The translations under genes and the position numbers were made by a program. Below, in pieces: positions 1-20,091 of a stretch of DNA of 32,000 bases; positions within the stretch are counted from its first letter, which is position 1, and each line of letters opens with the position of its first letter. The stretch spans positions 2,070,001-2,102,000 of the forward strand of contig NZ_CP042905.2 in the NCBI RefSeq assembly GCF_008000775.2, written 5' to 3'. The stretch is from Promethearchaeum syntrophicum (lineage in GTDB: Archaea; Asgardarchaeota; Lokiarchaeia; Sigyniarchaeales; Promethearchaeaceae). The notes below the pieces were generated by a model. It worked only from the letters and a program-made list of their open reading frames with translations, had not been told where the DNA came from and ran no database searches.

Positions 1-519
1 CGTTAGTATTTTTATTTTTTTTTGAGTATATCTCATTAAAGTCGAAATTAATTCAATCATCAACGCCTGGTTCTTTGGATCGATTGCAACCATAGGATAT
101 GTTTTTATTTTTAATAGGTCTTCAACACGATCAGGGGTCATATGCCCTTTAAGATCTTGTTTGTTAGCTAGACACACAATTTCACATAGATCATCATCGA
201 TTAGATTTCTTGCGTGATCGATAATTTCCATCGTCGAAAGAACATTTTTTGGAGTCGAATCAGTAACAATAAAGATCAAATCCGAACCATGGATATATTT
301 ACTGAGTTGTTGTTTGATGAATGCTTTTTGACCTCCAAAGTCCCAGATCTTGAAAGGATTTATGTTTGGGTCGTTTAAAGTTGCCAAATTAAAACCCATT
401 GTAGGATTATATCTTCCTGTGATTAATTGCCCACGGATCATTTTAGAGATAGTAGTTTTACCTGTAGCTGGTGCTCCGACAAGACTGATTTTTGCAAATT
501 TTGCAAATTTTTGATCCAT
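1..519 (-). CDS. Arf/Arl-like small GTPase (C-terminal end runs off the left edge; absent from the supplied ORF track)
   Basis: My own reverse translation from ATG (519-517) stays open to position 1: MDQKFAKFAKISLVGAPATGKTTISKMIRGQ...FKIWDFGGQKAF...CLANKQDLKG. It has G1 P-loop GAPATGKT, Arf-type G3 WDFGGQ and G4 NKQD. Confidence 0.85.
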   Translation of the reverse strand, partial: MDQKFAKFAKISLVGAPATGKTTISKMIRGQLITGRYNPTMGFNLATLNDPNINPFKIWDFGGQKAFIKQQLSKYIHGSDLIFIVTDSTPKNVLSTMEIIDHARNLIDDDLCEIVCLANKQDLKGHMTPDRVEDLLKIKTYPMVAIDPKNQALMIELISTLMRYTQKKIKILT

Positions 520-614
520 AATTTTTAACTAGAGTTTACATTCTTTATATTGAGATATCATTGAGATAATATTGTGATAAGAAATAAAAAACAAACAAAC
601 TGAGAATAACCTAA

Positions 615-1391
615 ATGCCGAAAGATATACTTGAATTGGTCCGTGATTTTAATTATTTAGTAAAAGATGCAATTTCTGGCCCAAATTGTATTGATCCTAA
701 AGTGTGTCATGGAGATTGCTGCTTTATTCACATAGATATTCCAAGAATTTTAGCTCAACATTACATTGAAAAGGGTTGGGCAAGTAAAGAAGATTTCAAA
801 CGAGGTTCAACTTTTAGCTTTGAAATTAATGTTGATTTAGACATATTAAAGTGTGTGTTCTTTTCCAAAGAGGTAAATGGTTGTTCTCTGCATATAACTG
901 GAATGAAACCTCCACAGTGTTGGGTATATCCTACTGGTTTAGATCCTGATAAAGTAAATACATCATGTAAAAAAGCAGGTGGTTGGTTTATAAATGATTC
1001 TGTGAGTGTTAGGAACGCTAAAAATATTTTAAGTGATTATGTTTCAATGTGTCAAGCAGAAGCTATAGAAGAAAACTCTCCCGATAAGATAAATCGGAGA
1101 TTACAAGCATTATCTACAGAAAAATTTGATACCCTTACGCCAAGTAGTATTGCCGGAATTGAGGATGATTGGGATAGGTTCAAAATTTTGATAGGCGAGG
1201 GTTATAATTTAGGCGTACGATCTTTTTGTTCAAAAATTGATTGTGGGATTGAATATTTCGAGTGCCCTGTTGTGTGTGAACCTCTGAAGAAAAAATTACT
1301 AAAATTTCTTTCTGAGAAATTATCCCATTTTATTCAACAAAACGGGTTTAAATCTCAATATACATTCATGGAATTAAAAGGACAGAACTGA
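615..1391 (+). CDS. Cysteine-rich putative Zn/Fe-binding protein (YkgJ/UPF0153-like CxxCxxCC family)
   Basis: 258-aa ORF. The N-terminal motif C-IDPKV-C-HGD-CC-F resembles the Cx..CxGxCC signature of YkgJ-type metal-chelating domains. More Cys clusters follow (CSLH..PPQCW, CSKIDCGIEYFECPVVC). Confidence 0.5.
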   Translation: MPKDILELVRDFNYLVKDAISGPNCIDPKVCHGDCCFIHIDIPRILAQHYIEKGWASKEDFKRGSTFSFEINVDLDILKCVFFSKEVNGCSLHITGMKPPQCWVYPTGLDPDKVNTSCKKAGGWFINDSVSVRNAKNILSDYVSMCQAEAIEENSPDKINRRLQALSTEKFDTLTPSSIAGIEDDWDRFKILIGEGYNLGVRSFCSKIDCGIEYFECPVVCEPLKKKLLKFLSEKLSHFIQQNGFKSQYTFMELKGQN

Positions 1392-1607
1392 AATTAATTA
1401 TAAATATGCCGATTTTTGTCGGATCCCACATTGAATAAAATCTTAATTATATTCCAGTCGGACCATCACGATGTTATATCGGATTATATATTATCATCAT
1501 TCTTTTTAACATAACCTTAAATAACTACAATCTTAAAGTTTATTAATGGGTAAATAATTTTTGCTCAAAGTCTACTTTTTGACATAGTTAGAAATGGGAT
1601 TAGGGTT

Positions 1608-1976
1608 TTGGACGTGCAAAAAAAAATGGAAAATGAATTAAGCTTAACCGAATTGACTAAAAAATTCTTCAGTCGAAAATATGAATATATTATTCCTGAA
1701 AATCCAATCAAAGGTAGATCAGGTCAAAAATGGAAATTCAATGCGTTCGTGATGTATGAGAATCAGAAGTACGGTGTGTTTATCCGAGAGTGGAATAGGA
1801 GTATAGGGGTTAACCAGATTCGACAATTGGAGAAAGCTTGTAGGGATACAAAATGTGCAGGTGGAATCATAGTTGGAGATACATTTTCGTGTAATGCAGA
1901 GATTTTTGGAGAGAATTTAGGTATTCAAGTAGTGGAAAGGAGCACCCTAGTCCAAAAAATGCAGAATGGAATATAG
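1608..1976 (+). CDS. Small hypothetical protein with possible restriction-endonuclease-like (Mrr_cat-type) fold
   Basis: 122-aa ORF (TTG start in track; ATG at 1626 is the more likely start). The pattern GVFIREWNRSIGVNQIRQLEKA...GGIIVGDTFSCNAEIFGENLGIQVVERSTL resembles the core of Mrr-like nuclease domains, but the catalytic residues are not clearly present. Confidence 0.3.
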   Translation: MDVQKKMENELSLTELTKKFFSRKYEYIIPENPIKGRSGQKWKFNAFVMYENQKYGVFIREWNRSIGVNQIRQLEKACRDTKCAGGIIVGDTFSCNAEIFGENLGIQVVERSTLVQKMQNGI

Positions 1977-3607: not shown

Positions 3608-3843
3608 TTATACCTTAAAATATCTAATAAATTTACTTTTAAAATCGAATAATTGTATCTGAATGTTTTTTTGGGATTTTACTTTTAGTTTGTTAGGAAA
3701 TACTCATGAAATTTAATTGGCGAGATGACTTATCTGACCCAACTGAATTAAGACTCCCTATTTTTTAGAGAGTGCTGATTATGACGAAGATCTTGAGTAA
3801 TGATCGTTAATTTCGGAGTATTTCCTAAGTGGTGGAATTATAT

Positions 3844-6114
3844 ATGTCTCGTCGCACAAAAATGACTGAAGATATTTTAAAAATGATGGAAAATCCGAAA
3901 CAGATCAGAAATCTTGCTCTAATCGGCCATATAGATCATGGAAAAACAACATTATCTGATTCTCTTTTAGCAGAAGCTGGACTTTTAGCAGAAAGTTTGG
4001 CGGGAGAAGCAAGAGTATTAGATTATCTTGAAGAAGAACAAAGACGAGGCATTACAATAAAATCTGCTAATATTTCATTATATTATGAGCATAGTCTTGA
4101 AAAATCGCTTCCCTTCTTGATAAACTTGATTGACACTCCCGGGCATCTAGATTTCTCTGGGAAAGTTACCCGAGCTCTTCGGATGGCAGATGGTGTCATT
4201 GTTATTGTCGATAGTGTTGAAGAAGTAAGTAGTCAAACAGAAACTGTTGTTCGTCAAGCATTAGATGAAGCTGTCCGGCCAATACTATTTATAAACAAGA
4301 TAGATCGCCTTTTTAAAGAATTAAAACTTGACATGGAAGAAATCAAGGAAAAATTTAGTCGAATCATTCAAGATTTTAACAAATTAATATTCATGTATGG
4401 AGATGAATTGGCTAAATCTAACTGGATGGTTTCAGCTGAATTAGGTTCCGTGATTTTTGGGTCTGCACTTCATAGATGGGGATTTGTAATATCTGATCTT
4501 AAAACAAAAAATCACTCATTACAATATTTTGAAAACAAATACCAAGATGGCACTTATAAAGAAATTTCTTCATTATATCCCGTTTGGAAGAGTGTTCTTG
4601 CAGCTGTTGTTCAATTTGTTCCAGATCCAGCTCAAGCTCAATCTTACAGAACACAAACAATATGGAGTGGGGATATCGAGACTGAAATTGGAAAAGCTAT
4701 TCAAAAATGTGATCCTACTGGACCTTTAGTAATAGGTATGGGGAAAGTTCAAAAAATTAAGAATAGATTAATTGGAACTGGAAGGATATTTTCAGGAACT
4801 TTGAAAAGAGGGCAACATGCATGGCTTGTGAATGATGGATCAAAAACTTCGGTCAATCAATTGAGTATCTTCATGGGTTCTAGAATGGAAACTGTTATAG
4901 AAATTCCAGCAGGTAATATTGCAGCTATAGGTGGCATTAAAAAAATTAGCAGTGGAGAAACAATTTTTGATATTAAAAATATAGATGAAGCTAAACCCTT
5001 TGAGGCTGTAAAATATGTGAGTGAACCTGTTGTAACTGTTGCAGTTGAACCTGATATGTTAAAAAATCTTGCTCAATTACAAGAGATTCTCGAAGATATT
5101 AAAATAGAAGACCCAAATATTAATGTTGAAATTAGCAATGATTCCGGTGAATGTCTGCTATCTGGTATGGGACCATTGCATTTAGAAATCGTTGCAAAAA
5201 CAATAAAAGAAAGAGGTATTGAAGTTTCAGTTTCAAAACCAACAAGCGTATTTCGAGAATCAGTTCAAAAAATTAGTAAATATCACGAAGCAAAAAGCCC
5301 CAATGGATTGAATTCAATACAAATGCTGGTTATGCGTATGGATCCCTCGTCTGTAGAATATTTTAGAGGTGCCAAACGGCATATATTAGAAAATGAATAC
5401 TTACGGATAAACGATTTGAAAGAAAAAACCAATTTTAGTGAATATGAAGCCAAAGGGCTATGGAATGTGGATCGGTTTCAAAATATTATTATTTCTAGAT
5501 TGGAAGAAGATACAGGTATTGTATACAATGAAAATGATGAAATTAGCCCTAAGTCTCTGAAAAAACCAAAATCTCAAAAAGCAAAACCAAGTAGTCAAAG
5601 ACAAATAACTCATGAAATGCGAGATCAAATCATTAAAATCATTGGTAATTTATGCAATAACGGGACAATCGCTAAAGAACCGATGTCAGAATTAAAAATT
5701 ATCATTAAATATGCCCAGATTGTATCCGATCCTGAAGATTCTAATTATTTTGAAATTTCAACGATGATTAATGATGCATTTATCAATTGCATTCGTGAAG
5801 CTCAACCAGTTTTATTAGAACCTATATATCGAATGTTAATAACATCTCCCGAAGAACACATTGGGACAGTGACTTCTCTTATAAATCAATTTCAAGGGAA
5901 AATTAATGAAATCAGCCAGGATGCATTTAAATCATACATTGACGCGAAGATGTCTGTTAGGAAATCAATTTTATTTGCGGATGAAATTCGCGGTCAAACA
6001 TCTGGACGTGTTTTTTGGCAGAATTTATTTGATCGATTTTCACCTGTGCCAGAACATGATTTAGAAGAAATTGTAAAAGATATTAAATTTCGAAAAGGAT
6101 TGGCGTTTTTCTAA
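3844..6114 (+). CDS. Elongation factor 2 (aEF-2/eEF2 family) paralog, divergent translocase-like GTPase lacking the diphthamide histidine
   Basis: G1 GHIDHGKTT, G3 DTPGHLDF and G4 NKIDR are present with EF-2 domain order, and the C-terminal QPVLLEPIY motif is present. MSRRTKMTEDIL (ATG 3844) matches the usual aEF-2 N-terminus better than the GTG at 3829. The domain IV tip reads VSDPEDSNYFEIS where HxDxxHRGxxQ is expected. Confidence 0.85.
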   Translation: MSRRTKMTEDILKMMENPKQIRNLALIGHIDHGKTTLSDSLLAEAGLLAESLAGEARVLDYLEEEQRRGITIKSANISLYYEHSLEKSLPFLINLIDTPGHLDFSGKVTRALRMADGVIVIVDSVEEVSSQTETVVRQALDEAVRPILFINKIDRLFKELKLDMEEIKEKFSRIIQDFNKLIFMYGDELAKSNWMVSAELGSVIFGSALHRWGFVISDLKTKNHSLQYFENKYQDGTYKEISSLYPVWKSVLAAVVQFVPDPAQAQSYRTQTIWSGDIETEIGKAIQKCDPTGPLVIGMGKVQKIKNRLIGTGRIFSGTLKRGQHAWLVNDGSKTSVNQLSIFMGSRMETVIEIPAGNIAAIGGIKKISSGETIFDIKNIDEAKPFEAVKYVSEPVVTVAVEPDMLKNLAQLQEILEDIKIEDPNINVEISNDSGECLLSGMGPLHLEIVAKTIKERGIEVSVSKPTSVFRESVQKISKYHEAKSPNGLNSIQMLVMRMDPSSVEYFRGAKRHILENEYLRINDLKEKTNFSEYEAKGLWNVDRFQNIIISRLEEDTGIVYNENDEISPKSLKKPKSQKAKPSSQRQITHEMRDQIIKIIGNLCNNGTIAKEPMSELKIIIKYAQIVSDPEDSNYFEISTMINDAFINCIREAQPVLLEPIYRMLITSPEEHIGTVTSLINQFQGKINEISQDAFKSYIDAKMSVRKSILFADEIRGQTSGRVFWQNLFDRFSPVPEHDLEEIVKDIKFRKGLAFF

Positions 6115-6178: not shown

Positions 6179-8233
6179 ATGAATATTAGAAATATACTTA
6201 ATAAAAATAGAACTAAGCAATTTTTTTTTCTATTTCTAATTTACATTTTAATTACCTTAGTGTCATTTTCTAATTTTTCATTTAAGCCATCAAGTTCTGA
6301 ATCTATTCACTTGAAAGTTGGAGCTTATGAGAACAGCCCGAAGATTTTTACCAACGAACAAGGTGAGATTGATGGTTTTTTCCCTTCGATTTTAGGTCAT
6401 ATTGCTGATAAAGAGGGATGGGAATTGGAATATATTCATGGAAATTGGAGTGAAAGTTTAGCCCTCCTTAAGGCAAATCAAATAGATATTTTACCTGATG
6501 TTGGTTTTTCATACGATCGTCAAATGGAGTATGATTTTAATAATGAATCTGCGATAACTGGTTGGGGTATTGCTTATACCCATGATGAATCAGATATCTA
6601 TTCTATGCAAGATTTAAAAAATAAAAAGATCGGAGTAATGAAAGATGATATTAACTATATTGGACCCTTGGGAATAAAAATTATATCTGATCAAAATAGA
6701 TTAAATTGTACTTTTGTTGAATATGATAGCCTTGAAGATGTTTTAACTAGTTTAAATCTCAAAATCGTTGATGTGGGCATCGTAAATGAGTTTTTTGGAA
6801 ATTTAAATGCTTATAAATTTGATGTGAAAAAAACTTCAATCGCGTTTAATCCTATCGATTTTAAATTTGCTTTTCCTAAAAATGCAAGTTTAAATTCGTT
6901 CTTGATTGAGAAAATAGATAATTGGTTAAAGACTTCTAAAAGTGACCTTGATTCTATCTATTATCAAGAAGCCGAAATATACTTATCTGATCAAGAAAGT
7001 TCAATTCCTTCATGGATATTCCCTAGCTTTTTAATTTTAATCGGTTTAGCTGCATTTTTAACAATTTCTGCAATGACTTTGAGATATCAAGTAAAAATTA
7101 GAACGAAGAGTTTACATGATTTAAACCAAGAATTAAGTACAGAATCAATCCAGAAGAAAAATCAATTAGCAAATATTGTAGAAAATTCAAACGATGGGAT
7201 TATTAGTGCTGAATTAGATGGAACAATTAGGTCTTGGAATAAAAGTGCAGAAGTTATTTTTGGTTTTTCATCAGAAGAGATTATTGGAAAAAAATTAGAT
7301 CTTATAATTCCGTCAAATCGTTTTAATGAGGTCAAATATATTATTGATAAAATAAAGCAAGGAGAGCCTGTCAATCATTTTGAAACTAAACTTATGAGAA
7401 ACGATGGTAAACTTCTCGATATATCAATAACAGCTTCTCCATTAAAAAACCTAAAAGGTAAAATTAATGGCTTTTCCGCAATTGGACGCGATTTTACAGA
7501 AACAATTGAGAGACAAAAATTATATCAAGACCAAATTCTAAAAGCCTCTAAATTTAAATCAGATTTCATGGCTTCTATGTCACACGAATTAAGAACCCCT
7601 TTGAATAGTATCATCGGCTTTACCGATGTCATTTTAGAAAGAATAAGTGGGGAAATTAATGAGGAACAAGATAAATACCTCACACATGTAAAAACTTCAG
7701 CTATGCTTCTATTAGATTTAATAAACGATATTTTAGATATTACAAAAATTGAATCGGGTAAAATGGAACTGAATATTGAAGAGGTCAATCTAAGTCAGAT
7801 AATTAGTCAAGTTGATACAATGATAAAACCAATATACATGAAAAAAAGCCTAATTTTTGAAGTGCAAGAAATTGATAAAGAGAAAGTTATTCGAGTAGAT
7901 CGGTTGAGGTTTAAGGAAATACTTTTTAATCTACTTAGTAACGCTGTGAAATATACAAAAGAAGGAAAAATTATGATAAAATTTTCAGAGGAAGAAGAGT
8001 TTTGGAAATTTGATGTAATAGATACGGGTATAGGAATCAAAAAAGAAAATTTTGACATCTTGTTCAAAGATTTTAGAAGGATTGCTTCTAAATATGTAGT
8101 GGCAACAGAAGGAACAGGGCTCGGATTATCTTTGTCTAAAAGATTAGTCGAATTCCATGGAGGAACTATTTCTTTTACCAGCACTTTCGGAAAAGGGTCA
8201 AAATTTACATTTACAATTCCAAAACAATTATAA
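6179..8233 (+). CDS. Membrane sensor histidine kinase: extracytoplasmic solute-binding-protein-like domain, TM, PAS, HisKA, HATPase_c
   Basis: N-terminal TM/signal anchor FFFLFLIYILITLVSF. An SBP_bac_3-like region follows (LKVGAYENSPKIF..GEIDGFFPSILGHIA..), then a second TM (WIFPSFLILIGLAAFLTISAM) and a PAS domain. The kinase core has H-box SHELRTPLNSIIGF, N-box LLSNAVKYT, G1 DTGIGI and G2 GTGLGLS. Confidence 0.9.
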   Translation: MNIRNILNKNRTKQFFFLFLIYILITLVSFSNFSFKPSSSESIHLKVGAYENSPKIFTNEQGEIDGFFPSILGHIADKEGWELEYIHGNWSESLALLKANQIDILPDVGFSYDRQMEYDFNNESAITGWGIAYTHDESDIYSMQDLKNKKIGVMKDDINYIGPLGIKIISDQNRLNCTFVEYDSLEDVLTSLNLKIVDVGIVNEFFGNLNAYKFDVKKTSIAFNPIDFKFAFPKNASLNSFLIEKIDNWLKTSKSDLDSIYYQEAEIYLSDQESSIPSWIFPSFLILIGLAAFLTISAMTLRYQVKIRTKSLHDLNQELSTESIQKKNQLANIVENSNDGIISAELDGTIRSWNKSAEVIFGFSSEEIIGKKLDLIIPSNRFNEVKYIIDKIKQGEPVNHFETKLMRNDGKLLDISITASPLKNLKGKINGFSAIGRDFTETIERQKLYQDQILKASKFKSDFMASMSHELRTPLNSIIGFTDVILERISGEINEEQDKYLTHVKTSAMLLLDLINDILDITKIESGKMELNIEEVNLSQIISQVDTMIKPIYMKKSLIFEVQEIDKEKVIRVDRLRFKEILFNLLSNAVKYTKEGKIMIKFSEEEEFWKFDVIDTGIGIKKENFDILFKDFRRIASKYVVATEGTGLGLSLSKRLVEFHGGTISFTSTFGKGSKFTFTIPKQL

Positions 8234-8271
8234 ACTGATGTAAAAACTAATAAATACACATTAAAACAGAT

Positions 8272-11077: not shown

Positions 11078-11182
11078 TTTTGTTTTACTATGATTCTTAA
11101 TTTATTAAGAAATTCTGATTCGATTTTTTATCAATTTAACTAGCATACAGAAAATTTTCTCCATTCATCTGAAAAACAAAAA

Positions 11183-12319
11183 TTAACGTTTTAAATAAAT
11201 CGACACAATATCTCCATCTTCTAAATTATGGTCTGTTTGTATAAATTTTTGCCCTGGATGTTTGGCAGATTTTCCCCAGACTAATGCATATCGGTAGTTA
11301 ATTAAGAACCTTTTGTGCAGTTTCAAGCAAAGCTTTTTAATATTATCTCCTTTATGAAGAATGATAGGTTCACTCATATCAACCTCTTTTTGAGGGGGTT
11401 TTAGGTAAACACGGATTAATTCCAGCTCTTGAAAAATTTGATGTCGTAATTTATCAATATTTTCTTTATTCAGAGCTGAAATTTTGACCCAATGATTGTG
11501 CCCGATTTTGTTTGTGATTTCTTCATCTTTTATTTTCTTTTTTGCTAAATCTTTTTTGTTTATAACTACAAATTCCTTTGTATAGATTCGATTTCCCATT
11601 ATATGGTCAATCAGCTGATCTGGAGTTACATGAGGTTCAGAAAAATATACACTTGCGTTGCTAAAACCCATTTCATTTAGAATTCCCTTTACTTCTTCCC
11701 GATCCATATCTTGATGTCCATTATATGTAAATCCAATTCCACCACGATTTGTCTTTGTTATCTGAATTCTGGGGGGTTTTTCATTTAAACGCATTCCTGC
11801 ATTAAAAAGTTCTTGTCTTATAGTTGTAAGGTGGGAAAATTCAATGGACCCATCTGGAAGAAAACAAATCAAATTTAAAATCAAATCAGCACTACGAACC
11901 GCACCGAGAATTTCTCTCCCTCTCCCTTTTCCACTTGCTGCTCCAAGAATAATACCAGGTAGATCGATCAGCTGTATTTTTGCTTCTTCTATATCCATCA
12001 TTCCAGGAATCGCTGTTAATGTGGTGAAATCATAAGATGCAACTTTTGAATCTGTATTTCCTCTTGTAAGAAGGTTAAGTAGAGAAGATTTCCCTACTGA
12101 TGGAAATCCAATAAACGCTACTTGGGAATCTCCCGTTTTCTTAACCCCAAATCCAGAACCTCCTCCTTTTTTGGAAGTTGCAATTTTGATGAGGTCATTT
12201 CGGAGCTTTGCAATTTGTGCTTTCGTATAATTTATTGCTTTCTGCGTAGCTTTATTTTTTTGAGTGCGACTAAGCCGTTCTTCAAAATCCCGAATTTTCT
12301 CTTCTATTTTTTCACTAAT
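11183..12319 (-). CDS. drg: DRG-family (developmentally regulated GTP-binding protein, Obg-like) GTPase with C-terminal TGS domain; proposed non-canonical ATT start
   Basis: The track ORF (11183-12001) begins at MMDIEEAKIQLIDLPG, which is the G3 motif. My translation shows the same frame stays open upstream to 12325. That stretch encodes ISEKIEEKIRDFEERLSRTQKNKATQKAINYTKAQIAKLRNDL...VAFIGFPSVGKSSLLNLLT, the DRG N-terminal helix plus the G1 P-loop. The TGS-like C-terminus is IRVYLKPP...GDIVSIYLKR. There is no ATG/GTG/TTG between the in-frame TGA (12326-12328) and 12001. Confidence 0.8.
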   Translation of the reverse strand: MSEKIEEKIRDFEERLSRTQKNKATQKAINYTKAQIAKLRNDLIKIATSKKGGGSGFGVKKTGDSQVAFIGFPSVGKSSLLNLLTRGNTDSKVASYDFTTLTAIPGMMDIEEAKIQLIDLPGIILGAASGKGRGREILGAVRSADLILNLICFLPDGSIEFSHLTTIRQELFNAGMRLNEKPPRIQITKTNRGGIGFTYNGHQDMDREEVKGILNEMGFSNASVYFSEPHVTPDQLIDHIMGNRIYTKEFVVINKKDLAKKKIKDEEITNKIGHNHWVKISALNKENIDKLRHQIFQELELIRVYLKPPQKEVDMSEPIILHKGDNIKKLCLKLHKRFLINYRYALVWGKSAKHPGQKFIQTDHNLEDGDIVSIYLKR

Positions 12320-12325
12320 TTTTTG

Positions 12326-12334
12326 TCACACTCC
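12326..12334 (-). promoter_or_regulatory. Shine-Dalgarno-like element GGAGTGTGA, 6 nt upstream of the proposed ATT start of the DRG gene
   Basis: The minus strand reads GGAGTGTGA-CAAAAA-ATT AGT GAA. The purine-rich element resembles the GGAGGTGA core complementary to the archaeal 16S 3' end. Confidence 0.35.
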
Positions 12335-12534
12335 AAATTTAAAACCAAGAAAGAAAATTGATTAAGAGCAAAAAATTTTTCGAAAAACAAAAATATCGTG
12401 ATAGCAGCAATGAAATTAGTGAATGAAACAAGGGAATATAATTAATTTATCATAAAGGTTACAGAATGAAAAATTAATTCTATGAAAAAAATTCGGTGGA
12501 TTGAATGTTATTTTTAGATTTTTAGAATATGAAT

Positions 12535-12930
12535 TTAAGATGTAATAGATGTTATTTCAATTTCTAATAATCTTTGAATTTTCTTTCTGAACTCGATTAT
12601 ATTTAATGGTTTTGATATATAATCACTAAATCCTGAATCTACTATTCTTTCTTTATCTCCTTTCATCGCAAATGAGGTTACAGCGATAATTGGTGTGCTC
12701 TTAAACTTGTCCATCTTCCGAATTTCTTCACAAATTTCTGTTCCATTAATTCCTGGAAGTTGAATATCTAGAAGAATAATATCCGGATCTTCGGATTTAA
12801 TTAATTCAAGGCCGTCTATTCCATTCTCCTTGGTTAAAATTTCTAGATTCGGGATCATTCCTAAAACGGCTTTGAATAACTCCAAATTTTTTTTATTATC
12901 TTCAACAATAATGATTTTTTTCAAATTCAT
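12535..12930 (-). CDS. Single-domain CheY-like response regulator receiver
   Basis: KIIIVEDNKKN...IILLDIQLPGING...TPIIAVTSFAMKGDKERIVDSGFSDYISKPL. It is a close paralog of the receivers at 8272 and 19696 and is transcribed divergently from the GTPase gene at 13182. Confidence 0.9.
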   Translation of the reverse strand: MNLKKIIIVEDNKKNLELFKAVLGMIPNLEILTKENGIDGLELIKSEDPDIILLDIQLPGINGTEICEEIRKMDKFKSTPIIAVTSFAMKGDKERIVDSGFSDYISKPLNIIEFRKKIQRLLEIEITSITS

Positions 12931-13181
12931 ATACTTCCCTAATAGAATTCTGTTTATTGTACTTGTATTAACATGATTATATTTATCATTAATTTTGGGA
13001 AATTTTCTAAAAAAAACTTATCTAAACATTAGATTTATTCTTGATTTTTTTCTCAATTCTATGATTAAATGTAATGTAAAAAGAAATTAAGGAAAATATG
13101 TTTTTAGCAAGTAATTACTATACATAATTTATATTTCATGTAATTTAATGTAAAAAAAAATAATTAAACGGTAATTAAAAA

Positions 13182-14471
13182 ATGCCCAAAGGAATCGTTC
13201 TAGTTGGATGGGATAATAAAATGGGATCTACAATTGAGGTGAAATTCCCAAAGGATTATCAAATCCAAAATAAAAAAATAACTCAGTATTTGGTAACTCT
13301 ACAAACTTTCGGAAGAAGTTCAAATATTCAAATTCGAGATAATGAGGATATAATTTTAATTTTTGGTTATCCGGTAAGAGAAGGGCCTGCAAATTATGAC
13401 TTTATTATTGTAATTCTGGATAGTTTAGAGGAATCCGAAATTCCAAAAATTCAAAGTAAACTAAATCTTGAAGGAGGAAATATTTTAAAAACTCCCAAAC
13501 CTAAAAGATCAAAATTATTCCTGGATTTTGCAGGAAATTTCATCAAACAGGAACAAAAGAAAATAGTTTTTATGGGATATCCGAATTCAGGGAAAACTAC
13601 AACAAAATTATTCTTTTTTGAGAAGATTCAGAGTGAGAAACTTTTAGAAACTACATTTACGCCCACAAAAGGAATTGAAACGGATCGGTATAGTTTAATT
13701 GATTCGAATATTGCATTATTTGATACTTCTGGCCAAGAAATTGAAAGATGGTTTAACATAGATGAAACTCCTTTAATTGGTTCTGACCTAACAATTTTCT
13801 TTATAACAGCAATGGATTGGAAACGAAACCCAGAGAAGGTAAAAAATGATTTAAATAGACTTATTCAACTCTCTGAAAAACTTGATGAGTCTGATCACGA
13901 TTTAGTTCTATTCTGCCATAAATTTGATGAAATTACTGAGAATATAGAAGAATTTAAAATAAGTCTTATAGATTTCACTCAAACGTTAGATATCTCTGTA
14001 TTTTTCACTTCAATTAAAGATACGGGGAATTTTGATATTTATATTGGTTATCAACTCATGTTGAGAAAATTCTCACCACTATTTGCTTTTATAAATAATT
14101 CACTCAATCCACTTATGAGCAGGTATCAACAAAGCGGAAATCTCCTATTTATTCTCGATTCTGATTTCACTCTAATCACAGATTTTACTCATAGCATTGA
14201 GGATTTTGATGTGGCGAACATCCAACAGTTTAAAAGTACTACAATCAAAATGATGAAAATTATTAATTTAGATGATAATAAATCTAGTGATTTCATTACT
14301 TTTACTTACGAATCAAGTGCTAAAATAGTCGTTTGTTTAAGAATATCTAAATTTAATCCCGATTTTTCTTATGTTATAATGCAAGCTGATTCATATCAAC
14401 TTGTGGATGAAATCTATAAGGAATATAATAAAATGAAAGAGAATTTTACGTGGGTAGAGCATAATAATTAA
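13182..14471 (+). CDS. Three-part small GTPase: N-terminal longin/uDENN-like domain, Rag/Gtr1-like G domain, C-terminal roadblock-like domain
   Basis: The N-terminal ~100 aa (GIVLVGWDNKMGSTIEVKFP...DFIIVILDSLEESEIPKIQ) have an alpha/beta regulatory-domain pattern. The G domain has G1 GYPNSGKTT, G3 FDTSGQE and G4 variant HKFD. The C-terminal part is GNLLFILDSDFTLITDF...KIVVCLRIS. Confidence 0.7.
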   Translation: MPKGIVLVGWDNKMGSTIEVKFPKDYQIQNKKITQYLVTLQTFGRSSNIQIRDNEDIILIFGYPVREGPANYDFIIVILDSLEESEIPKIQSKLNLEGGNILKTPKPKRSKLFLDFAGNFIKQEQKKIVFMGYPNSGKTTTKLFFFEKIQSEKLLETTFTPTKGIETDRYSLIDSNIALFDTSGQEIERWFNIDETPLIGSDLTIFFITAMDWKRNPEKVKNDLNRLIQLSEKLDESDHDLVLFCHKFDEITENIEEFKISLIDFTQTLDISVFFTSIKDTGNFDIYIGYQLMLRKFSPLFAFINNSLNPLMSRYQQSGNLLFILDSDFTLITDFTHSIEDFDVANIQQFKSTTIKMMKIINLDDNKSSDFITFTYESSAKIVVCLRISKFNPDFSYVIMQADSYQLVDEIYKEYNKMKENFTWVEHNN

Positions 14472-14481
14472 AATAACTCTC

Positions 14482-14513
14482 TTTTTTTTTTAAAAAAAAT
14501 TTTATAAAAAAAA
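14482..14513. terminator. Bidirectional oligo-T/oligo-A tract in the 45-bp gap between convergent GTPase genes
   Basis: A T10 run (14482-14491) is followed by two A8 runs, which read as T8 on the minus strand. Oligo-T tracts are the established archaeal termination signal. Confidence 0.5.
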
Positions 14514-14516
14514 GGT

Positions 14517-15668
14517 TTATTCAGTTAAATTTCTTAATTTAAACACTTTTCTCAGTTCTGACATTACATCATTTCTATTCGGTTTAACTTTTTGTTGCAC
14601 TTTTTTCTTTGGTGGGGGAGGAGGAGGTTGAACTATTTGTTTATTTGATGATTTCACTTCAATATTTTTTGTACTTGGAATTTTTCCTAGATTCGATCCT
14701 CCAATTATACCTTTTAATTCTTGAAATTGATTCATTATTGAACTATTTAACTTAATTACCATTTCTGAAAGAATTGAAACTTGTTCTTCTAAATTTTTTG
14801 CAATTTTATCTGGACCGAAAAATTGCTTAAAGGATTTTGCAAATTCGGGCTCATTTGCATAGAAATTATAAATACTCGATTGAATTAATTCAAAACTAAA
14901 TTTCTTCTCATTAAGCGATGTTGAGATTATTTCAGAGATCATTTCTAAATTAATTTGAAAATCTACTTCTTGACGTATATCAGGATCTGATTTATGTAAG
15001 AGTACTAATACATATGGATTTTCTTTGAAATAACTCACTATATCTAGAATTTTATCAAAATATTCTATTGATTCATCAAAACGTTCCGAATCTTGGATAT
15101 CTATAACATAGATAATTAAATCGATATGTAAGAAAAATTCTTCTGGATTTTTTAAATAATCCTGCCTGTGGAATTCTTGTCCACCGAAATCCCATATCGT
15201 TAAATTAAAATTTTCAACTTCAATTTTTTGAATGTCCACTCCTTTTGTAGGAGGAAGATTAGTTATATCGCCAAATTTTGTTTTTCCTTTTAAGCTTTCA
15301 AGCATGGATGTTTTTCCTGCGTTATTAAGACCCAAAACTATTATTTTTTGCTTGGATTTTTTTAAATAAAGTGATCTTTTTTTCCATGCTCTTGATAATA
15401 ATTCAGCTGTTAAAATCCATTTTTCGAATAGTTCTTCACTAATACTAGTTTCTTTTGCAATTTTTTTAATTTTTTCAGATTTTAATTTTACAAAATCTCT
15501 AATTTGGGTGATTTTGTATTTTTTAAGTTTCTCTCCATATTCATTCTTGCATTCTTTTAAAACGCTTGGATTCATATTCAAAATTTCTGAAAAAGAATTT
15601 GGTGTTTTTTCAACAACAAGAAATTTCTTACAAAAAATATCGATTATTTTTTCTTTATCTGTTGACAT
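14517..15668 (-). CDS. Arf/Rag-like small GTPase with N-terminal extension, C-terminal coiled coil, poly-proline tract and WH2-like tail
   Basis: G1 GLNNAGKTS (Arf-like GLDxAGKT), G3 WDFGGQE and G4 variant HKSD. The C-terminus is ...QPPPPPPKKKVQQKVKPNRNDVMSELRKVFKLRNLTE. Confidence 0.8.
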   Translation of the reverse strand: MSTDKEKIIDIFCKKFLVVEKTPNSFSEILNMNPSVLKECKNEYGEKLKKYKITQIRDFVKLKSEKIKKIAKETSISEELFEKWILTAELLSRAWKKRSLYLKKSKQKIIVLGLNNAGKTSMLESLKGKTKFGDITNLPPTKGVDIQKIEVENFNLTIWDFGGQEFHRQDYLKNPEEFFLHIDLIIYVIDIQDSERFDESIEYFDKILDIVSYFKENPYVLVLLHKSDPDIRQEVDFQINLEMISEIISTSLNEKKFSFELIQSSIYNFYANEPEFAKSFKQFFGPDKIAKNLEEQVSILSEMVIKLNSSIMNQFQELKGIIGGSNLGKIPSTKNIEVKSSNKQIVQPPPPPPKKKVQQKVKPNRNDVMSELRKVFKLRNLTE

Positions 15669-15746
15669 AATTTTAATGTTTTTTTCATTCCTAAAACTCT
15701 TCCTATCGAATTCTCAGTTAATAAATATAAAATCAGTGAAAACATT

Positions 15747-18700
15747 CTAAATTAATTTCTTGGGTAATGTAAATGAAAAGGATGAACCTTCACCCAATAC
15801 ACTGGTAAATGTGATATGTCCTCCGTGAAGTTCAATTAACTTTTTTGTCAACATCAACCCCAATCCAGTTCCTTCAATAGATTCCACATAATCTGATTCA
15901 ACTCTCTTAAATTCTTGAAAAATAATTCCAAAATCCTCTGGTGCAATCCCAATTCCAGTATCAATTATTTTAAATTTCCAATTCTTTTCATCTTCCATAA
16001 AATCTAATTTTATTCCGCCTTTTTCAGTATATTTGATAGCATTACTTAAGAGATTTAGAAGTATTTCTTTAAACCTTATCGGATCTGCATTAATAATTGT
16101 GCCTTTTTCAAACCCAACTAACTCAAAATTCAATCCTTTTTTTTTATAAAGTGGTTTTACTTCGATTTCAATTTGAGAAACCAAATTCAATAAATCAAAA
16201 TCTCTGTACTTTAATTCTACTTTTCCTGCTTCTATTTTTGAAATATCTAAAATATCATTTATTAGATTTAATAAGTGTTCTGCCGATGTTCTGACGTTAT
16301 TAAGATAATGATCTTGTTTTTCGTTCACATCTCCATAGAATTTCTCAATCAAAATATCTGTAAAGCCAATGATACTATTTAATGGAGTTCTTAGTTCATG
16401 AGACATTGATGCCATAAAATCAGATTTAAATTGGGAAGATTTAATAAGTTGATCTTGATATTGTTTTTGCTGCTCTAATGATTCAGTAACATCACGAGAA
16501 ATCGAGGAAATTCCAACAATATCTCCCTTTAAATCTAAAATTGGGGAAATTGTCACATTAACACTTAATACCTTTCCATCTTTTCTAAGACGTTTAGTTT
16601 CAAACAATTTGTAGGATTCACCTTGAACAACTTTTTCTATTAAGTTGGGAATCTCTTCCATGCGATCAGGTGGAATCAACATGCTTATTGATTTTTCTAA
16701 AACTTCCTCCAATGCATAACCATATATTCTTTCAGCACCCTTATTCCATGATTTAATCATTCCCTCTTTATCCATGCTTACAATCGAATCTGATGAAGTT
16801 CCAACAATACTTGCTAATCTCTTCGTTTCTAATTTATATTCTATACTGATTATTCCTAATTTAATTCGTGTTAAAATTTCTTTTAATAATCTTTTTTCTT
16901 CATCTAAAAATTCCTTATTAATTTCATAAACTACCTCAATTTTCAATGGAATATCATTAATTTTATCAGAAATGGTTAATTTCCATTCGGATTCTTTAAA
17001 ACTTGTTGTTTGGGCTTGATTTTCTCCATAAATTATTTTTACCATAGTTATTTCTGGATATTGCCATGATGAACGAATCAGAGGTAGAACTCCATAGAGC
17101 AATTCCTTGATGGTAATGTCTGGTACAACTAAAAGACTGGAAATTCCATATAAACATTTTAATCCTTTAATCCTGACTTGAAGCATTAATTCGGATTCCA
17201 AAATTTGTTTTTCTTTTTTTTTCCGGTCAGTAATATCTTCAAATATTTCTAAAAGTGCCGGTTTTCCATTGAAATTTTCAATTTTTGTGGAACTAATCTC
17301 AAAATCTCGTTCTTCGTCAAATTTTGACAAAAATAATTTGTCCTCAAATTTTAAAGATTTAATATTCTGACTGAGTGATTTGTTTCTCAGTGGACACATA
17401 TCATCACATGGTTGCTCTCTGCCTCTTAAAATTTTATAACATATCTTCCCGTCAAGAATTCCGTCATATATTTTAGAAGAGCTTCTATTATGGAATAAAA
17501 TTTCATAATCTTCAGATATTACAAAAACGGGATAATTTAGAGTATTTAATATAATATTTAATTGATTTTTTGAATTTTCCAGCTCCCTAGTCCTTAATTC
17601 TACCTTTTGATCTAAATCCAAATTTAAATTTCGTAATCTGAATTCTGTTTCCTTTAATTTATTCTCCCGTGATTTACTTTCAGTAATATTTCTGACAAAA
17701 ACAGCAATTTTATTCTCATCATAGAAAAACAATCTCGCCTCAAAAATTTCAATTATCTCATTTTGTTGTTTTAAAGGAAATTCAACTACCTGTGGTTTTT
17801 TTGTTTTAAATACTTCTAAAGATTTTTCTTCAATCAATTTTGAAATCTTATTTGGAAAACCAATAAAAAGATCTTTTCCCAATAAATTATCTAAAGGAAC
17901 GTGAAGTAAATTTTTATCTCCGTGAAATTCCAAGACATCTCCCTTTTTAGAGAGTAATAAAAATAAATCAGGAATAGCTTGAAAAATGGTTGTAAATTTT
18001 TTAAGTGAATTTCTTAAATTTTTCTCATTTTTTTTCTGAATCTTATAATAACGCATTTTTGCGATTCCTAAGGAGAGATTATTCACCATTTTTGATATTA
18101 ATTCCACATCATCTTCATCGAATGTGTTTTTATTTCCTGAATATATGCCTAACACACCAATTACAATATTCTCTATAATGATTGGGATTGAAATTGATGA
18201 TAGAAAACCTGATCCATCGAAAACAGTTTTCCAATTTTTAAATTTTTTTTCTGCACTTAAATCGTTAATAATATAATTTTTTCTTGTTCTTATCGCTGTT
18301 CCGCTAGGACTTTGATCTTTTACAGATTCGGACCATGTAAATTTCAATTTTTTTCCATCATATTTAGAATTATCAAAGATATTATATCCAGCTAAAGCAA
18401 CTGGTTTTATTGATTTTTCTTCATCATATTGGACTAACCCAATCCAACAAAATTGGTAATTTTTAAATTGAATAATCTCTTCACAAAATTCTTGAAACAT
18501 TCCCATTTCATTTTTTGCATTTGAAATTAGAAAGTTAGTTTGACCTTGAATAAAGGTTAATTTCTCAATCTTTCTCTGTCGCGTTATGTCAGTTCCTAAG
18601 CTAAGAACACCTTCAATATTCCCTTTTTTATTATATACATTAGAATTATGCCATCTAATGATTTTTTCTAATCCTTTTTTAGTTTGTACAGCATTTTCAA

Positions 18701-18932
18701 AATAATCTACTTCTTTTTCACCATTTATCACCTTATTAAAAACTCTCTCCATTTCTTCCCTTTTAGAATGAGGAATACAAGTTTTGAACCAATTTTTACC
18801 CAATATTTCATTTTCTCTATATCCAAGTATTTTGTTACCCTTTACGTTAATATAAAGTATTTTCCCTTTTCTATCTAATTGTAGAACTATCGCATCAATA
18901 ATGTTCAAATATTTTCTATCGTTTCCAATCAT
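15747..18932 (-). CDS. Cytoplasmic multi-sensor histidine kinase (PAS-GAF-PAS-PAS-uncharacterised module-PAS-HisKA-HATPase_c)
   Basis: 1061 aa with no TM segments. It has PAS-like blocks, a GAF-like block (FCWIGLVQYDE...IGVLGIYSG), H-box SHELRTPLNSIIGF, N-box LLSNAIKYT, DTGIGI and GTGLGLM. Confidence 0.9.
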   Translation of the reverse strand: MIGNDRKYLNIIDAIVLQLDRKGKILYINVKGNKILGYRENEILGKNWFKTCIPHSKREEMERVFNKVINGEKEVDYFENAVQTKKGLEKIIRWHNSNVYNKKGNIEGVLSLGTDITRQRKIEKLTFIQGQTNFLISNAKNEMGMFQEFCEEIIQFKNYQFCWIGLVQYDEEKSIKPVALAGYNIFDNSKYDGKKLKFTWSESVKDQSPSGTAIRTRKNYIINDLSAEKKFKNWKTVFDGSGFLSSISIPIIIENIVIGVLGIYSGNKNTFDEDDVELISKMVNNLSLGIAKMRYYKIQKKNEKNLRNSLKKFTTIFQAIPDLFLLLSKKGDVLEFHGDKNLLHVPLDNLLGKDLFIGFPNKISKLIEEKSLEVFKTKKPQVVEFPLKQQNEIIEIFEARLFFYDENKIAVFVRNITESKSRENKLKETEFRLRNLNLDLDQKVELRTRELENSKNQLNIILNTLNYPVFVISEDYEILFHNRSSSKIYDGILDGKICYKILRGREQPCDDMCPLRNKSLSQNIKSLKFEDKLFLSKFDEERDFEISSTKIENFNGKPALLEIFEDITDRKKKEKQILESELMLQVRIKGLKCLYGISSLLVVPDITIKELLYGVLPLIRSSWQYPEITMVKIIYGENQAQTTSFKESEWKLTISDKINDIPLKIEVVYEINKEFLDEEKRLLKEILTRIKLGIISIEYKLETKRLASIVGTSSDSIVSMDKEGMIKSWNKGAERIYGYALEEVLEKSISMLIPPDRMEEIPNLIEKVVQGESYKLFETKRLRKDGKVLSVNVTISPILDLKGDIVGISSISRDVTESLEQQKQYQDQLIKSSQFKSDFMASMSHELRTPLNSIIGFTDILIEKFYGDVNEKQDHYLNNVRTSAEHLLNLINDILDISKIEAGKVELKYRDFDLLNLVSQIEIEVKPLYKKKGLNFELVGFEKGTIINADPIRFKEILLNLLSNAIKYTEKGGIKLDFMEDEKNWKFKIIDTGIGIAPEDFGIIFQEFKRVESDYVESIEGTGLGLMLTKKLIELHGGHITFTSVLGEGSSFSFTLPKKLI

Positions 18933-18983
18933 AAGTTTGCTACCTTATCTAGTAGTTAAAAAAAGAAGTATATATCATATATA

Positions 18984-19616
18984 TTACTTCATGCCTTCTG
19001 GTGAAAACATATTATTTAACACATTTTCTATCTCTTTAGCGGATTCTCTCATCATTTTAATATAATTTAAAAAATCTCCTTCTGAAATTTCAGTTTTTTG
19101 TTCTATGATTAAATCACAAAATCCTAAAATCGTGTTAACTTCGCCTCTAATTTTAACATTAAAAGATTCTAAAGGCACTAAATATTCCTTATTCATAAAC
19201 ATTGAATGAATTTTAACAAAAAAATCCAAAAATGCAGCATTATCATCAGTTAAAATTCGTTTGGTTCCAATCTTTCGAAATAATTCTTCAATTTGCTGAA
19301 AAATAAATGTAGATATCACTGGTAATTCTGCATCTCTTAAAAATATTAAAGCATAAGATTGTTTTCCTCCTCTTGCACTTGCATCTTCCACTTCTATTTT
19401 GCAAACTTGAGAATAAAATTTCTTATAATCTAAATAAACATATTTATTAGTTGTATTCAACGAATCTCGAAGTAAATCTCTGATGAAATCTTCATCTTTA
19501 ATATCGATTGATGAATAAAGAGATGTAGGACCTAAGATCTGGTCATATTTTCCAATAATTAATAAAAATTGCTCTTTATCTAGCCATTTTTTGAAATTGC
19601 TGTATTTTTCCGACAT
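18984..19616 (-). CDS. Longin/roadblock-like domain protein with a C-terminal His-less DHp (HisKA-like) helix pair
   Basis: The N-terminal part is FLLIIGKYDQILGPTSLY...SYALIFLRDAELPVISTFIFQQIEELF. The C-terminal NVKIRGEVNTILGFCDLIIEQKTEISEGDFLNYIKMMRESAKEIENVLNNMF aligns by eye to MSHELRTPLNSIIGFTDILIEKFYGDVNEKQDHYLNNVRTSAEHLLNLINDIL of the adjacent kinase, with Val at the phospho-His position. Confidence 0.55.
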   Translation of the reverse strand: MSEKYSNFKKWLDKEQFLLIIGKYDQILGPTSLYSSIDIKDEDFIRDLLRDSLNTTNKYVYLDYKKFYSQVCKIEVEDASARGGKQSYALIFLRDAELPVISTFIFQQIEELFRKIGTKRILTDDNAAFLDFFVKIHSMFMNKEYLVPLESFNVKIRGEVNTILGFCDLIIEQKTEISEGDFLNYIKMMRESAKEIENVLNNMFSPEGMK

Positions 19617-19695
19617 TTTAACGCCATGAATTTTTTATTAAATAATTTAAGAAGAATATTTTTAAAAATAAAATTCTCCAAAATAGGAGATCCGT

Positions 19696-20091
19696 TCATA
19701 TCCTTAATAAGTTTTGAATTTTCTCTCTAAAATTTTTAATAAGTAATGGCTTTGATATATAATCATTAAAGCCAGATTCTAATATTCGTTCCTTATCTCC
19801 TTTCATAGCAAATGAAGTTACAGCAATAATAGGAGTTTTATTAAATTTTTTATCTTTTCGAAGTTGTTTACAAATATCTGTTCCACTTATATCGGGAAGT
19901 TGAATATCTAATAAAATTATATCTGGATTACTTGAATATATTAAATTAAGACCATCTCTGCCAGTAGCTGAGGTTAGAATTTCTAAATTTGGGATAGTCG
20001 CTAAAACTGCTACAAATAATTCCAGATTTTTTTCATTATCTTCGATGATATATATTTTCTTCTTCAAATTATTTCCTCCATTTTCATGCAC
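19696..20091 (-). CDS. Single-domain CheY-like response regulator receiver (first gene of a 4-gene co-directional array)
   Basis: KIYIIEDNEKN...IILLDIQLPDISG...TPIIAVTSFAMKGDKERILESGFNDYISKPL. An alternative TTG start sits after an internal GGAGGA (..AATGGAGGAAATAATTTG..). Confidence 0.9.
   Translation of the reverse strand: MHENGGNNLKKKIYIIEDNEKNLELFVAVLATIPNLEILTSATGRDGLNLIYSSNPDIILLDIQLPDISGTDICKQLRKDKKFNKTPIIAVTSFAMKGDKERILESGFNDYISKPLLIKNFREKIQNLLRI

Follow-up and report, generated by a model that had tools for sequence, protein, structure and literature searches.

A lineage-restricted island of two-component and Rag-type GTPase genes in Promethearchaeum syntrophicum: a candidate link between His-Asp phosphotransfer and the GTPase cycle

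The closed 4.32-Mb genome of Promethearchaeum syntrophicum (~28% GC) contains, within the 32,000-nucleotide stretch analysed here (the window, G000:C1:2070001-2102000), an island in which histidine kinases and receivers are interleaved with small GTPases of the Rag family and with a longin protein, P0004, that ends in a dimerisation and histidine phosphotransfer (DHp) hairpin lacking its phospho-acceptor His. Database proteins related to the island are labelled Promethearchaeota/Lokiarchaeota. The locus raises the question of whether these two kinds of signalling genes form one system and how a signal might pass between them. A sequence-only reading had proposed that His-Asp phosphotransfer gates the GTP cycle of the GTPases through receivers that have no output domain. 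This interpretation was found to be partly supported, and its novelty overstated. Functional coupling of the module is well supported by comparative genomics, and the two-component genes and the GTPase/longin genes very probably form a single functional system. The best explanation of the whole, to which a probability of about 0.55 is given, is a coupling of His-Asp phosphotransfer to the GTPase cycle, in which the longin-DHp protein probably serves as the adaptor. The island would then be an expanded copy of a signalling module restricted to a lineage of the Lokiarchaeia, in which a dedicated two-component subfamily (non-hybrid kinases with PAS, GAF or SBP domains, and receiver-only proteins) may work with Rag-family GTPases and a longin of the GTPase-activating protein (GAP) type.

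Conservation of the module in related genomes

Comparison genomes are designated by anonymised family (f) and genus (g) codes, and the nearest of them belong to the same order as the genome of the window. Co-occurrence was counted over 60 relatives, which are kin and not independent events.

In the window, REC_d, the longin-DHp gene, HK2 and GTP4 form, in this order, a co-directional array with spacers of 79, 51 and 78 bp, and REC_c diverges from GTP3 across 251 bp, exactly as the sequence-only reading had measured (coordinates in Table 1). Three other genomes of the genus retain the whole island in order, including REC_b followed by GTP2, and the adjacency of REC_d to the longin-DHp gene is likewise kept, the receiver lying 74 bp upstream in contig C228 of G001. 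An ancestral GTP3-GTP2 operon has been split in this genus by rearrangement and the DRG gene, and beside each half there is once more a receiver paralogue.

Twelve genomes of the family f3 (genera g9, g13, g15, g16 and g19) showed the operon unsplit. Here a single stand-alone receiver, 55-65% identical to REC_a and REC_c, is located beside a GTP3-like gene (~435 aa, 24-28% identical) followed by a GTP2-like gene (~505 aa, 37-44% identical over the full length); it is mostly directly divergent from the operon and lies ~4.5 kb away in g13. One or two kinases come after the operon, and their best genome-wide matches are HK2, HK1 or their one paralogue, with the core up to 56% identical; for most of them HK2 is the best match, at 54-56% identity of the catalytic core. 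Many of these loci add a longin-DHp gene (47-53% identical), which a GTPase gene follows after 13-47 bp, and a GTP4-like gene in divergent orientation (orthologues 35-40% identical) that adjoins the longin-DHp gene, so that the full f3 supermodule is compact, at ~10 kb (e.g. L028 and L031). The GTPase behind the longin-DHp gene, of typically 293 aa (289-298 aa; L028:5585-6466, L031:4530-5417, L032:5086-5955 and others), consists of a G domain and a winged helix and is a short relative of GTP2, its best match; it has no orthologue in the genome of the window.

The strength of the association was assessed from both sides. Starting from the receiver, a Rag-like GTPase was the immediate neighbour at 16 of the 22 loci outside the genus and lay within ~5 kb at 19 of them, against an estimated random-gene expectation of about 3%; no arrangement of the module proved more widely conserved than a receiver divergent from a GTP3-like GTPase, as in REC_c/GTP3. 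Viewed from the longin-DHp gene, the direct neighbour was a Rag-like GTPase at 8/12 loci and a module kinase at the remainder. The receiver subfamily is present wherever a full-length GTP2 orthologue occurs, GTP2 and receiver being jointly present in the same three of 11 g9 genomes and the same eight of 17 g15 genomes. Among the 60 relatives the longin-DHp gene and the receiver occurred together in 21, one only in six, and neither in 33. Receiver-GTPase adjacency, whose conservation in relatives had been set beforehand as a refuting test of the proposal, survived it, adjacency and co-occurrence extending over at least eight genera and three families. The linkage exceeds chance, since it is conserved in other genomes through much divergence and rearrangement.

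The two-component side is, moreover, strongly concentrated within this genome. All four members of the receiver subfamily are located in the window, as are three of the four high-scoring HisKA kinases of the non-hybrid type (no fused receiver); the genome has 21 receiver domains, about seven of them stand-alone, and four of these are in the window. Local GTPase density was discarded as evidence of linkage: with ~60-65 GTPases per genome, four per 20 kb is borderline alone, about 0.06 after window correction. A roadblock gene found near the receiver in some f3 genomes was also considered as a part of the module and rejected; its adjacency was treated as incidental because the orthologue here, 80% identical, lies 290 kb away.

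The g13 islands (L024, L025 and L026) also encode 286-291-aa proteins, as at L024:3824-4684(+) and L024:6944-7819(+), which are composed of a ~100-aa N-domain, a DHp with an 'ISH' box and a receiver, and which have no ATPase domain. They may serve the same module as phosphotransfer intermediates.

Components of the island

Table 1. Island and neighbouring features of the window (domains and bit scores by Pfam).
Feature	Position	Strand	Description
Island	6179-20091		~6.2-20.1 kb of the window, plus HK3 at 23.8-26.8 kb
HK1	6179-8233	+	transmembrane (TM) - SBP_bac_3 - TM - PAS - HisKA - HATPase; TM 15-33, 280-298
REC_a	8272-8691	-	stand-alone receiver, 88.6 bits; f3 orthologues 55-65% identical
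REC_b	8974-9354	+	stand-alone receiver, 61.4 bits; 220 bp upstream of GTP2, same strand
GTP2	9575-11077	+	Gtr1_RagA 54.8 bits, residues 4-161, then ~340 aa further
REC_c	12535-12930	-	stand-alone receiver, 89.3 bits; divergent from GTP3
GTP3	13182-14471	+	Gtr1_RagA 32.3 / Arf 31.1 bits, residues 121-334, behind 120-aa N-terminal domain
GTP4	14517-15668	-	Arf 84.4 / Gtr1_RagA 79.2 bits, residues 99-268; final gene of REC_d array
HK2	15747-18932	-	cytoplasmic; GAF - 2xPAS - HisKA - HATPase
P0004 (longin-DHp)	18984-19616	-	210 aa; Folliculin-N longin + His-less DHp hairpin (146-204)
REC_d	19696-20091	-	stand-alone receiver, 81.9 bits; heads array
HK3	23833-26754	-	2 TM - 3xPAS - HisKA - HATPase; same kinase subfamily; beyond 20,091
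GTP1	1-519	-	Arf 63.6 bits; plain ~180-aa Arf-like GTPase, G4 = canonical NKQD
Mrr-like ORF	1608-1976		unrelated to module
EF-2	3829-6114		unrelated to module
DRG GTPase	11183-12331	-	unrelated to module
wHTH (winged helix-turn-helix) protein	21065-22195		within window

Pfam confirmed the four Ras-superfamily GTPases, and the domain assignments of the sequence-only reading hold in the main. Membership of the Rag family is defined here by the Gtr1_RagA profile (gathering cut-off 22 bits), and the G4 motif of RagA and Gtr1 is HKxD in place of NKxD. GTP2, GTP3 and GTP4 all pass the cut-off and have the P-loop, DxxGQ and HKxD intact, with the G4 His and Lys invariant across the orthologue alignments; the profile is also matched by 15/15 GTP2 orthologues. 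GTP1 reaches 21.5 bits, just short of the cut-off, and falls outside the family. Its membership of the module is unsupported, EF-2 and unrelated open reading frames (ORFs) lying between and no conserved linkage being seen. Four Arf/Rag-like members had been counted in the island; three of them are Rag-type and the fourth is a plain Arf-like protein. A further Rag-like GTPase, a 333-aa frame with a Gtr1_RagA score of 90.6 bits, is located beyond GTP1, ~2.6 kb upstream of the window (G000:C1:2066807-2067427, minus strand).

The three Rag-type proteins each carry extensions, as had been noted. In GTP2 the G domain (HKID) is followed by a MarR-like winged helix at ~180-280 and then by a roadblock/longin fold at ~282-400, and the chain ends in a helical tail; the roadblock sits after the inserted winged helix and not directly behind the G domain, and the closest sequence match of GTP2 in the PDB is human RagA (E 1.7e-6). 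GTP3 shows the layout N-terminal longin - Rag G domain (HKFD) - C-terminal roadblock, and in the predicted structure residues 122-425 superpose on full-length fungal Gtr1/Gtr2 (TM-score 0.52-0.63 over ~290 residues). Its first 125 residues were modelled as a longin by AlphaFold2 (AF2; predicted local distance difference test, pLDDT, 87.5; predicted TM-score, pTM, 0.84), the best solved structural matches of which are NPRL2, Npr2, NPRL3, FNIP2 and Lst4. This longin has an invariant W10-D11-x3-G15 element with the same spacing as the WD...GP element described for C9orf72 (PMC12290439). In GTP4 a conserved ~100-aa N-domain precedes an Arf/Rag-like G domain (HKSD), from which a Pro-rich linker leads to a basic motif, also conserved, at the C-terminus; the G domain is nearest in the PDB to the Lokiarchaeal Rag-like structures 8zla/9m28 (E 9.5e-30) and 8yl2 ('LokiRagO', 'LokiRagM'). 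The earlier claim that roadblock/longin modules are fused to the GTPases is borne out for GTP2 and GTP3 and fails for GTP4, in which neither module was detected.

At the C-terminal end of GTP4 and its orthologues (14517-14700, minus strand) a poly-Pro/Lys-rich linker is followed by a conserved R-x-D-V-x-S-E-L-x3-F, and this tail may be membrane- or cytoskeleton-binding. The GTP2 and GTP4 orthologues of a same-genus metagenome-assembled genome (locus L023, G003:C17, 4286-5750 and 9067-10256; 74% complete) are each present as two ORFs, owing either to frameshifts or to assembly errors.

The protein P0004 is a longin of the NPRL2/FLCN type fused to a His-less DHp. The Pfam Folliculin-N profile matches it at 23.4 bits against a cut-off of 23.3, and the match recurs in 7/7 orthologues. 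The AF2 model (pLDDT 83) showed a longin of topology beta-beta-alpha-beta-beta-beta-alpha-alpha (residues 18-141), followed by the helical hairpin. NPRL2 chains lead the Foldseek matches of the longin (E 1.3e-5), and VIA gave a Z-score of 12.8 for NPRL2 (root-mean-square deviation, rmsd, 3.0 A over 133 residues), 11.9 for FLCN and ~10 for generic longins. The hairpin resembles the DHp of HK853 in the HK853-RR468 complex (VIA Z 8.5, rmsd 2.8 A, 66 residues), and hhalign related the C-terminus to the DHp of the neighbouring kinases with a probability of 90% (E 1.4e-6). Weak CheY-like matches to residues ~33-62 (E 0.025-0.12) were taken as chance.

Two sets of residues characterise the P0004 family. 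Y24, D25, G29, P30 and R82 are invariant in 25/25 diverse members, giving the motif Y24-D25-x3-G29-P30, in which G29-P30 is located where beta2 begins in the model, at the beta1-beta2 junction. A GP motif together with an arginine finger is the mark of the GAP-type longins FLCN, NPRL2 and SMCR8, and also of a class of Asgard longins to which no GTPase partners are assigned (PMC12290439). The phospho-acceptor column of the DHp is occupied by L/V/I/M, likewise in 25/25, as the sequence-only reading had noticed for the missing His; P0004 is therefore not a phosphotransferase through this site. The stretch of helix 1 downstream of the His position reads N-[ST]-I-x-G-F-x-[DE] and mirrors the N-S-I-I-G-F-T-D of the kinases. 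P0004 has thus lost the His and the ATPase domain and keeps the alpha-1 surface common to the co-clustered kinases. The DHp hairpin occupies the C-terminus, and neither a DENN nor the NPRL2-specific C-terminal domain is found. The N-domain of GTP3 might be the partner longin of P0004, by analogy with NPRL3 for NPRL2 or FNIP for FLCN.

Among 1.84 billion proteins the family is very small, with 88 clusters on grouping at 90% identity and, at 50%, 36 representatives, all annotated as hypothetical. It was found in 29 of the 75 genomes of f1 and f3 and in 0/226 genomes from 28 other families of the phylum, and is confined to one order. No complete kinase bearing the P0004 longin was found, including among the 1.84 billion representatives, and the other search matches are unrelated multi-HisKA proteins. 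Rare relatives of ~390 aa (P0102 and P0104) carry an N-terminal PAS in front of the longin and DHp.

The kinases HK1-3 possess the H-box SHELRTP and HATPase_c. HK1 belongs to the non-hybrid subfamily, and its sensor domain and position are peculiar to this genome; the sensor is an extracytoplasmic solute-binding domain, SBP_bac_3, which is mostly an amino-acid-binding family. In other genomes of the genus the position of HK1 is taken by different kinases (969 and 1183 aa), so that the sensor input varies around a conserved kinase core, receiver and set of GTPases. The kinase cores of HK3 and HK2 are 77% identical in DNA. The PAS units of HK3 are duplicated internally (25378-26185), with DNA repeats of 175-228 nt, 76-82% identical and 390 nt apart. 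The four receivers consist of the receiver domain only, as anticipated, with the acidic pair (E/D-D), phospho-acceptor Asp, Thr/Ser and Lys intact. REC_a, REC_c and REC_d are mutually 66-74% identical in protein and 70-75% in DNA, and REC_b is 42-47% identical to the other three. The lack of output domains, on which the sequence-only reading had laid weight, is not special in itself because such receivers are the norm in archaea, where receiver-only proteins mostly have no conserved context (PMC5847659).

Of the remaining genes, EF-2 and DRG encode translation-type GTPases. The DRG gene has a GTG start (12331-12329), as in three same-genus orthologues, followed by TGA (12328-12326); beyond the TGA the reading frame continues uninterrupted across the P-loop, and a canonical start (ATG at 12001) is first reached downstream of the P-loop. 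A pseudogene, a non-canonical start (ATT three codons past the TGA), read-through or a sequencing error are possible explanations. A small ORF at 20635-21021 (plus strand) encodes an N-terminal TM helix and at least three tandem 63-nt (21-aa) repeats (20781-21005), 89-91% identical, and gave no family match.

Proposed mechanism and rival explanations

The favoured course of events begins with autophosphorylation of the kinases on the H-box His and transfer of the phosphoryl group to REC_a-d, which we infer from the intact motifs. The phosphorylated receiver would then dock on the His-less DHp dimer of P0004, in the way that receivers dock on helix 1 of a kinase DHp. Docking may switch the P0004 longin, with its GP motif and Arg82, which would be a GAP or a platform for GTP3, GTP2 and/or GTP4; this step is suggested by the homology to GATOR1 and FLCN. 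GTP3 and GTP2 probably pair as a roadblock-mediated heterodimer, since their counterparts share one operon in f3 genomes; such roadblock pairing has been modelled for another Lokiarchaeal pair (PMC10933270). The output would finally run through the accessory parts of the GTPases, namely the winged helix and coiled coil of GTP2 and the Pro-rich tail of GTP4. This exact order (kinase, receiver, P0004, GTPases, output) is tentative and rather doubtful in its details, and the direction of signal flow and the contacts through which phosphorylated receivers would gate the GTP cycle are likewise putative.

The docking step was modelled as a complex of two P0004 chains with REC_d, using author-made alignments and three controls. 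An ipSAE of 0.38 was obtained, against 0.00 for the best of the three controls, which supports docking weakly; at least 72% of contacts are shared between runs, and the partner pLDDT is at least 76. In a benchmark the pass mark was reached by 58/80 solved complexes and 2/110 mismatched pairs. The band up to 0.60 contains only seven of the 80 solved complexes, and both passing mismatches fall there.

Several observations weigh against the favoured reading. The P0004/REC_d score lies in this weak band, and the pass may reflect likeness only, because the alignments were author-made and solved structures of kinase-receiver complexes exist. In the model R82, a putative equivalent of the catalytic Arg of NPRL2/FLCN, is located in the beta4-beta5 loop; profile searches with P0004 of the PDB, and of the 1.84 billion representatives, did not reach FLCN or NPRL2. 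Gene neighbourhood cannot reveal the direction of a signal, and the counts overstate independence because the relatives are kin. In the same family the module is missing from the genera g3, g6 and others, and from g5 bar G011, in which the longin-DHp gene adjoins a GTP3 orthologue; two closed genomes, of 4.36 Mb and 6.0 Mb, are among those that lack it. These genera carry only ~30% paralogues in another context, and the module is therefore accessory. The 100% complete genome G028 has receiver, GTP2 and GTP3 and gave no longin-DHp match, so that the module can occur without the adaptor. The only public run containing the locus, catalogued as TRANSCRIPTOMIC RNA-Seq, was rejected as expression evidence: the locus is recovered as 32-89 kb contigs of uniform depth with ~4.3 Mb in total, and the run behaves like genomic DNA and is uninformative on transcription and operons.

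The same parts could be connected in the opposite sense. The GTPase/longin side would then be the input, the longin reading the nucleotide state of the Rag-like GTPases, and P0004 would be a pseudo-kinase modulator whose His-less DHp forms heterodimers with HK2-type kinases or ties up the receiver and so tunes His-Asp signalling, the phosphorylated receiver being the diffusible output. A DHp that has neither His nor ATPase domain passes no phosphate but could dimerise with the kinase DHps, which are closely alike in alpha-1; the P0004 gene lies directly upstream of HK2 (51 bp) and adjoins HK2-like kinases in g13, the PAS-longin-DHp variants resemble a sensor front end, and the Streptomyces conservon offers a parallel in that GTPase activity and kinase activity each affect the interactions of the other (PMC4316618). 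The invariant GP motif and Arg82, however, indicate an enzyme-like GAP role rather than a passive sensor (PMC12290439), no complete kinase with the P0004 longin exists among the proteins searched, and the component tightest to the GTPase operon is the receiver, not the kinase. Reverse or lateral flow, the main rival, is regarded as unlikely. Less probable still is co-regulation only, in which the two-component system controls the GTPase genes transcriptionally, or belongs to a common regulon with them, via winged-helix proteins, and no direct contact is made. Such a scheme is suggested by the winged helix of GTP2 and of the 293-aa f3 GTPases, by the wHTH protein encoded in the window, by the conserved divergent receiver/GTPase promoters, and by receiver-only genes divergent from HTH genes in Thaumarchaeota (PMC5847659). 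The receivers, though, have no DNA-binding domain, and the island intergenic regions contained no operator-like motif above the shuffled background, k-mers common to three or more of them showing no excess over shuffled controls; a His-less DHp on a GAP-type longin is also hard to explain without a protein-level tie to the two-component system.

A mere signalling hot spot, rich in paralogues and held together by synteny inertia or tandem duplication with no functional link, appears highly improbable. It would account for REC_a, REC_c and REC_d being recent paralogues, as are HK2 and HK3 with their 77% DNA identity of the cores, and for the borderline GTPase density in genomes that have ~60 GTPases, but the adjacency survives at 25-45% GTPase identity over three families, rearrangements notwithstanding, the receiver stays with each half of the split GTP3-GTP2 operon, and presence and absence match within genera. 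The least credible of the alternatives is an accessory conflict or defence island, to which the patchy presence within genera and the Mrr-like ORF could point; the parts are signalling proteins and not effectors, and a tRNA, flanking repeats and a composition shift are all absent. PADLOC matches to core proteins reflect generic receiver similarity only, with none for GTP2-4, P0004, HK2 or the unknown ORFs, and NCBIfam gave only generic small_GTP and receiver matches to the island proteins.

Relation to known systems and biological meaning

Coupling of phosphotransfer to the GTPase cycle, as favoured here, would make the module work like a hybrid of GATOR1/FLCN-FNIP and a bacterial conservon, while it belongs to none of GATOR1, FLCN-FNIP and the conservons. 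With GATOR1 (NPRL2-NPRL3-DEPDC5) and FLCN-FNIP, which act on RagA/B-RagC/D, it shares Rag-family HKxD G domains with a roadblock (GTP3; a variant in GTP2), a P0004 longin structurally closest to NPRL2/FLCN, with GP motif and conserved Arg, and a second, NPRL3/FNIP-like longin fused to GTP3. Unlike these complexes, the module has no DENN, NPRL2 C-terminal domain, DEPDC5, Ragulator or TOR kinase; its longin is fused to a His-less DHp, its genes travel with histidine kinases and receivers, and a winged helix is inserted between the G domain and the roadblock of GTP2.

The Streptomyces conservon (CvnA kinase, CvnB roadblock/MglB-like, CvnC and CvnD MglA-like) is also a conserved operon of kinase, roadblock-superfamily protein and GTPase, with the GTPase proposed as output (PMC4316618). 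It is bacterial, with an MglA-type GTPase and a plain roadblock, and has no receiver or pseudo-DHp adaptor; the island has receivers, Rag-type GTPases and a longin-DHp where the conservon has a roadblock, and the conservon is an analogue, not the same system. The Myxococcus pathway from Frz through FrzX/FrzZ/RomR to MglA/MglB, which the sequence-only reading had cited, remains a valid precedent alongside it (PMC4316618): receivers link a His-Asp pathway by contact to a GTPase and its roadblock-fold regulator. It differs in its CheA-type kinase, in genes that do not form one cluster with the GTPase, and in the MglA family and polarity function of the latter, and the role of RomRX is now disputed (PMC13408092).

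The nearest archaeal precedents concern the parts. Liu et al. (bioRxiv 10.1101/2020.10.19.343400, Fig. 5c; Nature 2021) showed, in the portion of their account available, Asgard NPRL2-like longins fused to two-component domains, and P0004 is very likely one of these fusions. The same portion proposes that Asgard growth regulation is still centred on two-component systems, with 'eukaryotic' regulators, and places most genes for eukaryotic signature proteins (ESPs) outside conserved neighbourhoods; it describes domain fusions rather than a conserved operon-level module, and it does not treat a dedicated receiver subfamily, a Rag-like pair, the kinases, the loss of His or the GP/Arg motifs. The operonic Rag-like pair of MK-D1 ('Ca. 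Prometheoarchaeum syntrophicum'; Tran et al. 2024, PMC10933270) is similar in that it is predicted to dimerise through roadblocks; GTPases were stated there to be generally not operonic with regulators, and a two-component link was not reported. The claim that the arrangement is uncharacterised holds, within the searchable literature, for the operon-level module (dedicated receiver and kinase subfamily, Rag-like pair, GTP4, and a longin with GAP signature on a His-less DHp), which was not found there; it does not hold for the longin/two-component fusions and two-component-centred regulation in the seen part of Liu et al.

Asgard genomes contain Rag-, Arf- and Rab-like GTPases by the dozen, together with numerous proteins of the longin and roadblock types. 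According to Tran et al. 2024 (PMC10933270) these GTPases cannot be paired with regulators, because the genes rarely share operons, and a 2025 Traffic study poses the question of which GTPases partner the Asgard longins with GP motif and Arg finger. The module supplies specific conserved candidates, namely one GAP-type longin, three Rag-type GTPases, one receiver and one kinase subfamily, described as small soluble proteins amenable to expression and assay, and a likely role is assigned to one family of receiver-only proteins. If the favoured coupling is true, a prokaryotic phosphorelay would be shown to feed eukaryote-like GTPase switches. It is tempting to go further and to speculate, improbable as this stronger form is, on a system in archaea that corresponds to the nutrient - GATOR1/FLCN - Rag axis, in which two-component kinases, one with SBP_bac_3, would be the upstream sensors and a phosphorylated receiver on the pseudo-DHp would gate GTP hydrolysis of a Rag-like heterodimer; the physical coupling of His-Asp signalling to eukaryote-type Rag/longin signalling would then predate eukaryogenesis. 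The island offers a concrete candidate for the control of Rag-like GTPases in the closest archaeal relatives of eukaryotes, a lineage-restricted and accessory, yet tractable, entry to Asgard GTPase regulation.

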